Under the pieces are notes generated by a model. That model was not told where the DNA came from and searched no databases. It saw nothing but the letters and a program-made list of their open reading frames with translations. Position numbers and translations under genes: made by a program. From UHGV virus genome UHGV-0050635: a stretch of DNA of 10,490 nucleotides. The stretch is one strand, 5' to 3'. The DNA comes from a virus. How positions within the stretch are numbered: position 1 is the stretch's first letter; each line of letters opens with the position of its first letter. This document shows, piece by piece, positions 1,465 to 9,596 of the stretch.

Positions 1465-1809
1465 TTAGTCCTTGCGTAGCTCGCTAATTCTTCTGTAAGT
1501 CTCTGGTGCTTTGTTTCCGTGTATCTTCATTTCAGACTTCAACAGAGCAACGAGTGAATCCCATTCGTTGAGGATTCCTTTGAATGCCGGAACGCGCTTT
1601 GCAACCTTGTCGAATGAATCTCTGATTTCTGGAATCTGCTCAACAAGTGCAACGCATCGTCGGAAATCGGCTGCATCATGTGGAGCGCCGAAGTGATGAC
1701 CATAGATATTCTTTTTCAGTCCACATGCGATTGAGGCAAGAGTTGCGCTACTGATGCCGACATCGCCAGTCGATTGCCATTTCAAAACCTTCATAGCCAA
1801 ATCTGACAT
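1465..1809 (-). CDS. Hypothetical phage early protein (114 aa)
   Basis: ORF with ATG at 1809 and GGAGA 6 nt upstream. Same orientation as the left operon. No family recognised. Confidence 0.7.
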   Translation of the reverse strand: MSDLAMKVLKWQSTGDVGISSATLASIACGLKKNIYGHHFGAPHDAADFRRCVALVEQIPEIRDSFDKVAKRVPAFKGILNEWDSLVALLKSEMKIHGNKAPETYRRISELRKD

Positions 1810-1822
1810 TTCTTGTCTCCAT

Positions 1823-1879
1823 AAAACAAAACTCGCCGTAGCGAGTTCAGATAAAAGAAAACCCGCACTCGGCGGGTTC
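1823..1879 (-). terminator. Two tandem intrinsic-terminator hairpins on the - strand (1861-1879 aacccgc-actcg-gcgggtt plus T-tract; 1831-1846 actcgc-cgta-gcgagt plus T-tract)
   Basis: On the - strand each GC-rich stem-loop is followed directly by a T-rich run (TTCTTTTATC and TTTTGTTTTAT). They sit downstream of the 2158..2400 transcription unit and just upstream of the 1809 start codon. Confidence 0.5.
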
Positions 1880-7252: not shown

Positions 7253-7453
7253 TCAGGCAGCCTTGTTGTTCAGTTCACCAAGTTCTCTGGCAATCATTGC
7301 CGTCGTTCGTATTGCCCATTTATCGACATATTTCCCATCTTCCATTACAGGAAACATTTCTTCAGGCTTAACCATGCATTCCGATTGCAGCTTGCATCCA
7401 TTGCATCGTTTGAATTGTCCACACCATTGATTCTTATCAATAGTCGTAGTCAT
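7253..7453 (-). CDS. ral: Ral-like restriction alleviation protein (66 aa)
   Basis: Translation MTTTIDKNQWCGQFKRCNGCKLQSECMVKPEEMFPVMEDGKYVDKWAIRTTAMIARELG... matches my recollection of lambda Ral nearly residue for residue, and the gene sits at the lambda ral position between N and cIII. Confidence 0.7.
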   Translation of the reverse strand: MTTTIDKNQWCGQFKRCNGCKLQSECMVKPEEMFPVMEDGKYVDKWAIRTTAMIARELGELNNKAA

Positions 7454-7523
7454 ACGGATAGTCCTGGTATTGTTCCATCACATCTTGAGGATGCTCTTCG
7501 AACTCTTCAAATTCTTCTTCCAT
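7437..7523 (-). CDS. Candidate micro-ORF encoding a 28-aa highly acidic/aromatic peptide (MEEEFEEFEEHPQDVMEQYQDYPYDYDY); not in the supplied ORF track
   Basis: ATG at 7523 preceded by GAGGTGA at 4-nt spacing. The stop TGA at 7437-7439 overlaps the ral start region by 17 nt. Found by manual translation. Confidence 0.35.
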   Translation of the reverse strand: MEEEFEEFEEHPQDVMEQYQDYPYDYDY

Positions 7524-7578
7524 ATCTCACCTCAAATAAGTGGTTTGCTGCGAAAAAGTAAAACAATGATATTCACTT

Positions 7579-7845
7579 CTATTTGTCATCGTGTAAGTGA
7601 CGCAGGTTATTAACTCGCGGCCAGTAATATTTTGGCTTGGCACGAGATCCGGGTCTTGGACCTACGCAAACTATATAGCTCTCTTCTTTCCTCGGAAGGC
7701 CAGGTGCATCTAGCAGACGGCCTAGTTCGAATTTTTTTACGTTGACACCAGGAGGAATCACCTCGACGATAAACCCGATTTTTACCTTCGTTACACCGTT
7801 TGATGAGCTTGACCATTTAACTTCATCGTTCAATTTGAACTTCAT
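7579..7845 (-). CDS. Hypothetical protein (88 aa; alternative ATG at 7848)
   Basis: Tandem ATG codons at 7848 and 7845 with GAGG just upstream. Located directly after the N-remnant stop, i.e. in the position of the first gene downstream of N. Confidence 0.65.
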   Translation of the reverse strand: MKFKLNDEVKWSSSSNGVTKVKIGFIVEVIPPGVNVKKFELGRLLDAPGLPRKEESYIVCVGPRPGSRAKPKYYWPRVNNLRHLHDDK

Positions 7846-7853
7846 CATTAACC

Positions 7854-7955
7854 TCAATCGTAATAAGCTGGAATTGATTTTCCGCGTTGTTTCTGGCGGC
7901 CTGAGCAGGTCACACCCATTTCACTGCGTGGCTTGCTGTAATAAATTCGGTTAGT
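7854..7955 (-). pseudogene. Remnant of the 3' end of a lambda-like N gene (33 in-frame codons: TNRIYYSKPRSEMGVTCSGRQKQRGKSIPAYYD) downstream of nun
   Basis: Manual translation of the - strand between the nun terminator and the 88-aa gene gives a peptide closely resembling the lambda N C-terminal region (..YSKPGERGITCSGRQKIKGKSIP..). There is no RBS and it begins after an in-frame stop. Confidence 0.5.
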
Positions 7956-7960
7956 TCAGA

Positions 7961-7985
7961 CAATAAAAAACCCACCGAAGTGGGC
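7961..7985 (-). terminator. Rho-independent terminator on the - strand immediately after nun
   Basis: On the - strand, stem cccac-ttcg-gtggg is followed by TTTTTTATTG. Confidence 0.65.
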
Positions 7986-8314
7986 TATGACCATTTTTTA
8001 TTTGGATTTCGTTGGTGAGCGTGATTAACAACTCTGTGCATTACATCCTCATATTTTTCATCTTCAATTTTTTCGACATCGCGAGGAAATGGTGTTGCTA
8101 ATGCTTTGTCAACTTTATCCATTGGGTCTTCATTAATCTTATATTCAGGACCGTCATCTATAGCATTAAATCCAGGTGTTACACCGTTTTTTAATGCATA
8201 TGCTATCCTCTTTTCCCATCTCGCTATTCTCCTCCTGTCTCGAGATGTAAGACCTCTATCAGATACTTTTCTGTTTTGTCCGCGGTCAGGATTAACATAA
8301 ATAGTCTTTTTCAC
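7985..8314 (-). CDS. nun: Nun-like transcription termination / phage-exclusion protein (HK022 Nun type), about 109 aa
   Basis: Contains the arginine-rich motif DRGLTSRDRRRIARWEKRIAYALK and the C-terminus ...NPNKKWS with the penultimate Trp characteristic of HK022 Nun. Start is uncertain: GTG 8314, ATG 8317 or ATG 8323. Confidence 0.8.
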   Translation of the reverse strand: MKKTIYVNPDRGQNRKVSDRGLTSRDRRRIARWEKRIAYALKNGVTPGFNAIDDGPEYKINEDPMDKVDKALATPFPRDVEKIEDEKYEDVMHRVVNHAHQRNPNKKWS

Positions 8315-8325
8315 CATAAGCATAC

Positions 8326-8631
8326 TCAATAAGCACCGTACGGTAGTTTACTGTACAATTTTATTTTTTGGACTGCATGTATTTTGTTTCCTAATGGGTT
8401 TGAATCTTTGTAATAAATACTTCTATTTTTTCGAACGACTTCTTCTTTCTTCTTGCAGCAAAGGATTCCTAGTGATGCTGCTTTGTCTGCTTTGACGCAA
8501 CCAGAGAGCTTTAGCGCAATTTTTCGCGCCAGTGCTTCATTACTGCGTCGCTCGGCAATAAGTTCTGCTCTGCGAGCTTTGTAGCGGCTTTTTGCCGTAC
8601 CTTTGGATTCTTTCCAGACAATGGTTACCAT
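8326..8631 (-). CDS. N: N-like transcription antiterminator, phage-21-type arginine-rich motif (101 aa)
   Basis: ATG at 8631 with AAGGAG 6 nt upstream. The N-terminal GTAKSRYKARRAELIAERR is the phage 21 N ARM as I recall it. The C-terminal region resembles N-family tails. A cognate nutL lies upstream. Confidence 0.8.
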   Translation of the reverse strand: MVTIVWKESKGTAKSRYKARRAELIAERRSNEALARKIALKLSGCVKADKAASLGILCCKKKEEVVRKNRSIYYKDSNPLGNKIHAVQKIKLYSKLPYGAY

Positions 8632-8741: not shown

Positions 8742-8781
8742 TCTCAACGGTTAGGTTGAGAGTCCGTCGATGTTAAAGAGC
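8742..8781 (-). promoter_or_regulatory. nutL: boxA (GCTCTTTAACA, forward 8771-8781) and boxB hairpin (TCTCAAC-CTAACC-GTTGAGA, forward 8742-8761)
   Basis: Read on the - strand between pL and N. BoxA matches the lambdoid boxA consensus family. BoxB is a 7-bp stem with a CUAACC loop, and a near-identical boxA and loop occur at nutR. Confidence 0.6.
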
Positions 8782-8827: not shown

Positions 8828-8881
8828 AATTTAAGACTTCTTAATTTATTGGTCAAGTGCATTTTTGAAGAAAACTTAATT
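8828..8881 (-). promoter_or_regulatory. OL/pL: two P22-type operators (8829-8846 ATTTAAGACTTCTTAATT; 8864-8881 TTTGAAGAAAACTTAATT) overlapping a leftward promoter (-35 TTGACC forward 8851-8856, -10 TAAATT forward 8828-8833)
   Basis: Operators fit the P22 c2 consensus AnTnAAG-N4-CTTnAnT. The promoter hexamers on the - strand are separated by a 17-bp spacer. Confidence 0.6.
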
Positions 8882-8920: not shown

Positions 8921-8948
8921 GAAATAAAAAAGGGGCGAAAGCCCCTTA
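8921..8948 (-). terminator. Rho-independent terminator of the repressor transcript (- strand)
   Basis: On the - strand, stem aggggc-tttc-gcccct is followed by TTTTTTATTTCC. It overlaps the c2 stop codon. Confidence 0.7.
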
Positions 8949-9596
8949 AGGAAGGTTTGCTAGCTTGGCATCAACGACAACGCCAATGATTTTACAGTTC
9001 CCATTGATTTCAATCATTGGGTATTGTGGATTGAGTGGTTTCAGGAATTTTCTACCGGCATCAATAACTAACTTTTTGAATGTCGCCTCGTTTTCTCCTT
9101 CAAGTTTGGCGACTACCAACTTTCCATTACGTGGTTCGACTTCTGGGTCGACGAGAATAATCATCCCCTCAGGAATACTCAGTCCTGCCGGGGCAGTCAT
9201 TGAATCGCCTTTAACGTCGAGCCAAAAAGAGTCTTCAGAACAATCTACCGTTGTGTCGTACCAGTTATCTATTGCACGCCTATGATATGGCTCTACAGCT
9301 TCCATCCAACATCCTGCGCTTACCCAACTAATTAGAGGATACGAACCTCTTGGATCATGCCTGCTGTGATAGGCAATGTTTGAAAGACTATCCTCTCCTT
9401 TCAACAGGTAATCAGGGGAGCACTGCAAAGCCTTGGCTAAGGCCAATAGGTTTTCGCCATTGGGCTCAGTTTCAGATCGCTCCCATTGGGAAATAGCAAC
9501 ATTAGACACGCCAACCATCTTGCCAAGGGCAGCCTGCCTAATCTTGAGTTCTTTTCTGCGAGCGCGAATACGCTCACCCATCAGTTGTGTATTCAT
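8946..9596 (-). CDS. c2: Phage repressor, P22 C2 type (LexA/S24-like autocleaving repressor with N-terminal HTH), 216 aa
   Basis: Translation MNTQLMGERIRARRKELKIRQAALGKMVGVSNVAISQWERSETEPNG...IIGVVVDAKLANLP is nearly identical to my recollection of P22 C2. P22-type operators flank it on both sides. Confidence 0.9.
   Translation of the reverse strand: MNTQLMGERIRARRKELKIRQAALGKMVGVSNVAISQWERSETEPNGENLLALAKALQCSPDYLLKGEDSLSNIAYHSRHDPRGSYPLISWVSAGCWMEAVEPYHRRAIDNWYDTTVDCSEDSFWLDVKGDSMTAPAGLSIPEGMIILVDPEVEPRNGKLVVAKLEGENEATFKKLVIDAGRKFLKPLNPQYPMIEINGNCKIIGVVVDAKLANLP

Follow-up and report, generated by a model that had tools for sequence, protein, structure and literature searches.

An orphan 3' end of the N gene downstream of nun: a recombination scar widespread in Escherichia coli prophages

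Lambdoid phages carry morons, the units described by Juhala, Hendrix and colleagues in which a promoter, a gene and a terminator are inserted between conserved genes. In this work we have analysed a stretch of 10,490 nucleotides of the virus genome UHGV-0050635 (hereafter the window). The block that carries its nun gene is likewise a single gene with a predicted terminator and a putative promoter of its own (annotated as such in phage O276), and it is likewise present or absent between collinear genes, phage 21 being collinear with the window on both sides and lacking the block. In contrast to the morons, the left end of the nun block lies inside a gene and gives N a new tail, its putative promoter lies within N coding sequence, and the displaced end of N survives downstream. 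This displaced end (hereafter the orphan) has the same C-terminal sequence, and the same overlap of stop codon and ribosome-binding site, as the N genes of lambda, phage 21, Sf6 (gp37) and HF4s, but, unlike them, it has neither the arginine-rich RNA-binding part nor the NusA-binding one, begins with no start codon or ribosome-binding site, lies past a terminator and shows no coding constraint.

The nun gene of phage HK022 is reportedly expressed from the repressed prophage. Positions 8443..7968 of the window are 96.8% identical to HK022 and O276, and this stretch includes 37 codons of a diverged N tail that we call N-var. HK022 has putL in place of the 5' part of N and nutL and uses put RNA, whereas in the window a complete N/nut system stands beside nun; moreover, the HK022 nun is not followed by a canonical N orphan, and IS903 or another join is found there. 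The boundary sequences at lambdoid mosaic joints, such as bsq, a feature annotated in the same operon of Sf6, are also short stretches of high identity, common to genomes that otherwise differ, that mark module exchange. Unlike bsq, the orphan can be assigned to one particular essential gene, as its tail, and recurs after four or more different cargo genes.

In lambdoid mosaicism, remnants of genes and short boundary sequences shared at the joints of modules are already familiar, and the orphan, though real, is a recombination scar of an ordinary kind that many E. coli prophages carry. The searchable full-text literature yielded no account of such a remnant of N behind nun; the classical HK022 papers (Oberto 1989, King 2000, Juhala 2000) lie outside that search and may contain one.

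N, nun and the orphan tail in the window

On the minus strand, the orphan lies within the early-left operon of a lambdoid prophage (Table 1). In phage 21, boxA-L and nutL are annotated within the stretch that matches the window, and in mEpX1 and mEp235 a boxA is annotated at the place equivalent to the nutL boxA of the window. The nutL type (phage 21) agrees with the 21-type RNA-binding motif of the window N. The N protein itself joins a phage 21-type arginine-rich motif and middle region, at about 8492, to the diverged N-var C-terminal module, which ends in EEVVRKNRSIYYKDSNPLGNKIHAVQKIKLYSKLPYGAY and the stop codon. A 'nun gene promoter' is annotated in phage O276, which carries the HK022 region, and its hexamers are identical in the window; a consensus promoter scan of the window did not call them. 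The nun gene has 96.8% DNA identity to that of HK022, and Nun shows full-length homology to PHROG 5632 'Nun-like' (E 2.2e-69, positions 1-110). The nun terminator is the right end of the imported block, and homology with HK022 ends at 7968, while the filler that follows is kept as ATTG(T/G)CTGA in nearly all nun loci. The terminator stem reads CCCAC/GTGGG in the window and CCCGC-TCAG-GCGGG in HK022 (nt 1959-1980 of locus L002), the changes being two-sided and keeping the pairing; PA28-type loci have a degraded stem (CTTCGATAGA) and a shortened T tract.

Table 1. Features of the N-nun region of the window
Feature	Position	Strand	Remarks
P22 C2-like repressor gene	9596..8946	minus	
pL-like promoter (predicted)	8856..8828	minus	
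nutL, phage 21 type	8742..8781	minus	boxA GCTCTTTAAC, boxB hairpin TCTCAACCTAACCGTTGAGA; within the 97% match to phage 21
N gene, 101 aa	8326..8631	minus	starts MVTIVW; PHROG 271, E 3.3e-30
nun promoter (predicted)	8350..8378	minus	-35 ATGCAG at 8378..8373, -10 TACAGT at 8355..8350; inside the N-var coding tail
nun, 112-aa reading frame	7985..8323	minus	HK022-type transcription termination/exclusion factor; stop TAG at 7987..7985
Intrinsic terminator of nun (predicted)	7961..7986	minus	AGCCCAC-TTCG-GTGGGTT plus T tract; from terminator scan; stem-loop 7986..7969
Junction filler, nine bases	7956..7964	minus	ATTGTCTGA; TGA at 7958..7956 ends the orphan frame
Orphan N 3' end	7955..7857, stop 7856..7854	minus	33 codons, reads TNRIYYSKPRSEMGVTCSGRQKQRGKSIPAYYD followed by stop; 102 nt
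Approximate crossover inside the orphan	7885..7895	minus	left, 21-type and other N tails; right, Sf6/HF4s-type QKQRGKSIPAYYD
GAGG Shine-Dalgarno sequence of the next gene	7852..7855	minus	overlaps the TGA stop of the orphan
89-aa gene	7579..7848	minus	starts MMKFKLNDEV; PHROG 11941 (function unknown), E 6e-46, full-length
Second N remnant, 20 nt	7532..7551	minus	GCAGCAAACCACTTATTTGA, encoding a terminal SKPLI and stop; 21/lambda-type N end

In a tblastn search of 50,697 phage records (2.3 Gb), the orphan matches the annotated C-terminus of N from phage HF4s with 96.9% identity over 32 residues (E 1e-14), those of N7, Sf6 gp37 and SfI with 90-94% identity (90% for Sf6 gp37), and that of phage 21 with 79%; at the DNA level it is 95% identical to the HF4s N end over 102 nt. 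PHROG 271 'anti-termination protein N-like' matches it at profile positions 142-172 of 176 (E 3.2e-12), and the lambda N of PDB 6GOV, the solved antitermination complex, aligns with it at residues 82-109 (E 1.1e-6). Pfam gave no match to the 33-aa orphan and only a sub-threshold match to the full N, and translation of the plus strand of 7854-7955 contains no N-like peptide. These minus-strand matches, which with the N ends of phage 21 and lambda go far beyond chance, bear out the resemblance to a lambda-type N C-terminus that the first-pass annotation had noticed. Homology to intact N begins at 7952.

The NusA-binding part of lambda N lies at about residues 34-47, upstream of the end that binds RNA polymerase. 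The first-pass annotation had assigned the 33 codons to a region binding both RNA polymerase and NusA; the orphan corresponds to the C-terminal part of N that binds RNA polymerase, and the NusA-binding part belongs further upstream in N. The boxB-binding N-terminal arginine-rich motif and the middle region are also missing from the orphan, the motif being present in the separate gene at 8631..8326. As had been noted from the start, the orphan follows the nun terminator without a ribosome-binding site: the stem-loop precedes it, it lies 6-14 nt past the T tract, its frame is closed directly upstream by the in-frame TGA, and inspection of its head revealed neither start codon nor ribosome-binding site. 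Its only internal ATG (7919..7917) has no Shine-Dalgarno sequence before it. Of the features by which a functional N gene can be told, the orphan shows the homology and none of the others.

Three further candidates at this site were set aside. The minimum-energy RNA structure of 8000..7840 is no better than that of shuffled sequences (z -0.15), and a structured RNA element at the orphan was dropped for this reason. Read-through from nun into the orphan was rejected because the frames differ and both the terminator and the TGA stand in between. A plus-strand ORF of 70 aa (7742..7954), which covers the orphan together with the beginning of the 89-aa gene, found no support and is probably spurious.

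Downstream, the motif TTGAGGT that closes the orphan also ends intact N in phage 21, HF4s and Sf6. The 89-aa gene that follows has a good ribosome-binding site and is a further insertion downstream of the orphan, absent at the equivalent place in phage 21, Sf6, HF4s and mEpX1. In E. coli YZ3-11 a stretch 98.8% identical holds this gene with no CDS annotated. The second N remnant is followed by GGTGAGATATG, the region in which the next small ORF usually starts, and window 7551..7300 is 98.4% identical to nt 1574..1825 of the phage 21 record (L006), in which N ends at 1593. The 89-aa gene has N ends on both sides, and Sf6 carries the same SKPLI-type remnant past its gene 36 (L005, about nt 1760-1790). 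The second remnant in the window and that in Sf6 thus indicate that insertions just past N have repeatedly left N ends behind.

Loss of coding constraint in the orphan

A 63-nt core, NRIYYRKPRSEMGVTCVGRQK, was compared between 63 nun-linked orphans and 80 intact N genes; the latter were retrieved by their 5' part only, and neither set was selected on its tail. Variants private to the orphans comprise 14 nonsynonymous and 5 synonymous changes, in agreement with the neutral expectation of 3.6:1 (binomial p 0.58), whereas those private to intact N comprise no nonsynonymous and 7 synonymous changes (p 2e-5), and the two sets differ significantly (Fisher p 0.0012). The Arg codon beside the junction is CGA, CTA, AAA, ATA or TTA in the orphans and almost invariant in intact N. 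Nucleotide diversity is four times higher in the orphan (0.080) than in the adjacent nun (0.021). Codon positions 1 and 2 of the orphan are equally variable (0.059 and 0.060), and the corresponding values for positions 1, 2 and 3 of nun are 0.014, 0.003 and 0.045. The internal ATG is changed to ACG, ATA or GTG in 8 of the 63 copies.

Our results thus give no sign of purifying selection on the protein sequence of the orphan, which is an unconstrained remnant that drifts neutrally; the word 'fossil', used for it at the outset, fits a sequence with a neutral nonsynonymous ratio that its intact counterparts do not share. Neither indels nor premature stops were found among the 63 orphans, and much of the orphan polymorphism is common to functional N alleles and falls at third codon positions. 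Part of this polymorphism therefore looks as if it had been selected, which we attribute to repeated recombination with intact N and to the short length of the orphan; a weak constraint at the sequence level may also exist.

Origin, spread and mosaicism of the junction

Between 9000 and 8409, through N, the window and phage 21 are collinear at 97% identity, and their homology resumes at window 7952..7890, which corresponds to nt 1501-1563 of the phage 21 record, inside N. Since the homology stops in N and resumes past nun, N was interrupted and its 3' end left downstream of nun, as had been supposed from the window alone. Compared base by base with this relative that lacks nun, the window shows no mismatch from 8699 to 8493 (207 nt), and past 8493 the divergence climbs from about 15% to about 51% towards the N stop codon, which places the left join at about 8493; the N-var tail, EEVVRKNRSIYYKDSNPLGNKIHAVQKIKLYSKLPYGAY, can still be recognised as an N tail beside that of phage 21, EEVERKQNRIYYSKPRSEMGVTCVGRQKIKLGSKPLI. 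HK022 and O276 share with the window exactly 8443..7968, that is, the 37 N-var codons, nun, the terminator stem-loop and the first T's. From the phage 21 breakpoints and this shared stretch, the imported unit is therefore read as the N-var tail with the nun promoter, nun and the terminator, a block that appears to reach from about 8492 to 7953. The first-pass annotation had proposed that nun, or an N plus nun cassette, was inserted inside a resident N gene; the insertion stands, and its cargo would be more narrowly the last third of a diverged N allele with the predicted nun promoter, followed by nun and its terminator.

We propose that the 102-nt orphan is a non-coding remnant of a lambda/21/Sf6-type N gene that was cut off by a recombined N-var/nun/terminator block, and we hold this reading with high confidence. 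The left join falls in homologous sequence, the conserved middle of N, at about 8493 in this lineage, and the right join is non-homologous and sets the terminator T tract and nine further nucleotides against the N codons N-R-I-Y-Y. The replacement C-terminal module brought by the block keeps N whole and probably functional; changes in the N-var tail between lineages are mostly synonymous or conservative, and this tail occurs in the plaque-forming phages mEp235 and mEpX1. The orphan itself may have persisted because it is short, because the gene that follows has its ribosome-binding site in the final bases of the orphan, and because, together with mid-N, it would give the nun block homology on both sides to phages with canonical N. 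Double crossovers could then move the nun block and swap the content downstream, the role of the orphan as a homology arm being suggested by mosaic patterns and not by observation of the process.

When IMG/VR was scanned with Nun as anchor, 67 loci were obtained in which the end of nun is complete. About 62 of the 67 have the same junction, TTTTTTATTG(T/G)CTGAAC(T/A)AA, followed by the orphan, and five HK022-type loci lack the orphan and have the terminator variant in which both sides of the stem are changed; the loci fall into 43 downstream haplotypes, the HK022-type included. The same junction is present in mEpX1, mEp235, PA28 and E. coli YZ3-11. Megablast of nun plus orphan found matches in 784 of 5426 complete E. 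coli genomes, a result that mixes nun loci with plain N tails and that we take as 'hundreds of genomes' and not as a count of orphans. All of 80 HF4s-type N genes, anchored by their 5' part, run straight into the canonical tail. Recurring as it does across nun loci, the junction is therefore old and inherited, common to many E. coli prophages, and not an event of this prophage; the earlier description of a recombination junction in a mosaic phage is right as to the junction, and other phages share the event.

The orphan is itself a mosaic. The matches of phage 21, mEp235 and PA28 stop at 7890, and those of Sf6, HF4s and mEpX1 go on to 7851. Among the nun loci, two orphan 5' haplotypes occur in all combinations with two types of 3' tail, a 21-type, QKMKLGSKPLI and stop, and an Sf6-type, QKQRGKSIPAYYD and stop. 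In most loci the N-var tail and nun are joined to a 21-type arginine-rich motif. Two IMG/VR loci (L070 and the partial L069) have them joined to an HF4s-type N head, MTVVITYLADDNARNRRRARR, and in L070 the N-var tail carries conservative changes (QKIKL to QRIRL). The nun block is thus found with N of two specificities and with orphan tails of two types, a pattern from which we infer that it has spread through homology in mid-N and in the orphan. In intact N genes the canonical tail follows heads of the lambda, 21, HF4s and P22 types, and it is thus a nearly universal stretch of homology among these phages.

Some loci depart from this arrangement. In HK022, which has no N gene, the 37 N-var codons, EVVRKNRSIYCKDSNPLGNKIHAVQKIKLYSKLPYGAY, lie directly upstream of nun (L002, nt 1501-1620; the same in IMG/VR loci L054, L061 and L062); the former N-var stop codon is TGG there, and the annotated nun promoter lies inside the N-var tail. 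In PA28-type loci (L007, nt 1670-2008; IMG/VR L063 and L066), N-var lacks its usual stop and continues for about 13 extra codons, PYGLIEYAYGEKDYLC and stop, across the start region of nun.

Other cargo genes and alternative readings

A scan for the conserved tail core gave 120 loci, which divide into 89 intact N genes, 15 orphans behind nun and 16 orphans behind other genes. Three types of cargo other than nun can be distinguished: type A (as in L117), with a P22-type N head and P22-type tail followed by an 88-aa zinc-finger-like protein (PHROG 20899); type B (L093), with an HF4s-type N head and P22-type tail followed by a 120-aa protein (PHROG 7374); and type C (L121), with an HK022-type putL followed by a 147-aa protein (PHROG 13686). 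A second scan found 16 loci of type A and 5 of type C (21 in all). At least four unrelated cassettes (nun and those of PHROG 20899, 7374 and 13686) thus sit between mid-N, or an HK022-type putL, and the orphan, and those with N upstream bring their own replacement C-terminal module of N, N-var or P22-type. Types A and C have the same spacer, ACATAAATAACC, before the orphan, despite their different cargo and terminators, and the orphan starts at the same AACC in these cassettes as in the nun junction; in all three cargo cassettes it starts within a few bases of the nun-type boundary. The cargo proteins have no PADLOC match, nor does Nun itself, and no Pfam family above threshold.

The nearly identical orphan boundary at which three unrelated cassettes end hints that N contains a hot spot for cargo. 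We tentatively suggest, as an idea that may well prove wrong, that lambdoid N holds such a hot spot, which has the canonical N tail as its constant right-hand arm and in which the polymerase-binding tail is swapped together with prophage-expressed cargo, and that the proteins of PHROG 20899, 7374 and 13686 are exclusion or defence genes like nun. If this were true, new prophage exclusion genes could be found at little cost by looking upstream of orphan N tails, and the RNA-polymerase-binding tail of N would be an exchangeable module.

What other explanations could account for the orphan? The query is short (33 aa) and basic, and a chance or low-complexity resemblance, the outcome that would have overturned the first-pass annotation, might be feared; against E 1e-14 and 97% identity to an annotated N, 95% DNA identity over 102 nt, and a profile match (E 3e-12) that falls exactly on the C-terminus of the N family model, this idea has practically nothing left to commend it. 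The orphan might instead be expressed, as a small peptide from the internal ATG (MGVTCSGRQKQRGKSIPAYYD) or recoded onto Nun or N, and act on RNA polymerase like the N C-terminus. None of the copies seen has its 33-codon frame interrupted, and it corresponds to a part of lambda N that is resolved in 6GOV; but the ATG lacks a Shine-Dalgarno sequence and is lost in some copies (see above), the frame differs from that of nun with a terminator and an in-frame TGA intervening, and the substitutions have a neutral nonsynonymous ratio, so that we regard expression as very improbable. Somewhat less remote, though still improbable, is a local origin, in which the N 3' end was duplicated as nun was inserted, and the upstream one of the two copies, constrained as N coding sequence and nun promoter, diverged in place without any foreign allele. 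The two copies are indeed homologous from end to end (NR.IYY.K....G......QKIKL.SK), and the upstream one does hold the nun promoter according to the O276 annotation. Nevertheless, that copy is 37-51% diverged from phage 21 N and yet abuts the 207 mismatch-free nucleotides, the same diverged tail accompanies nun in HK022, where the 5' part of N is missing, and it is also found on the HF4s-type N of L070; both occurrences fit a separate, recombined allele.

The alternative that we take most seriously, although we still judge it unlikely, is that selection has kept the orphan as a cis-acting piece, either for the start of translation of the next gene or as a landing pad for cassettes inside N. 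The TTGAGGT at the end, which overlaps the stop codon, is conserved and is the Shine-Dalgarno sequence of whichever gene comes next, and the common boundary of three unrelated cassettes, the spacer shared by types A and C and the absence of indels in 63 copies could all be read in this way. A ribosome-binding site, however, needs only the last 10 nt or so, and the remainder of the orphan has private substitutions at the neutral ratio and a diversity four times that of nun, while its usefulness in recombination follows from the structure of the locus and is no proof of selection. A drifting remnant of N, left by import of the N-var/nun/terminator block, is therefore the reading that we prefer.

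What does this mean for the prophages that carry nun? The comparisons fix the anatomy of the N-nun region for a large group of E. coli prophages, in which a working N would be kept by a borrowed C-terminal module that doubles as the predicted nun promoter, and in which the old N tail marks the exact place of the exchange. HK022, the textbook phage 'without N', retains 37 codons of an N tail before nun. Annotators should label the orphan a remnant, and neither leave it blank nor call it a gene. It is unannotated in the mEp records and in E. coli YZ3-11, and the PA28 record has N and a 45-aa ORF annotated and no nun.
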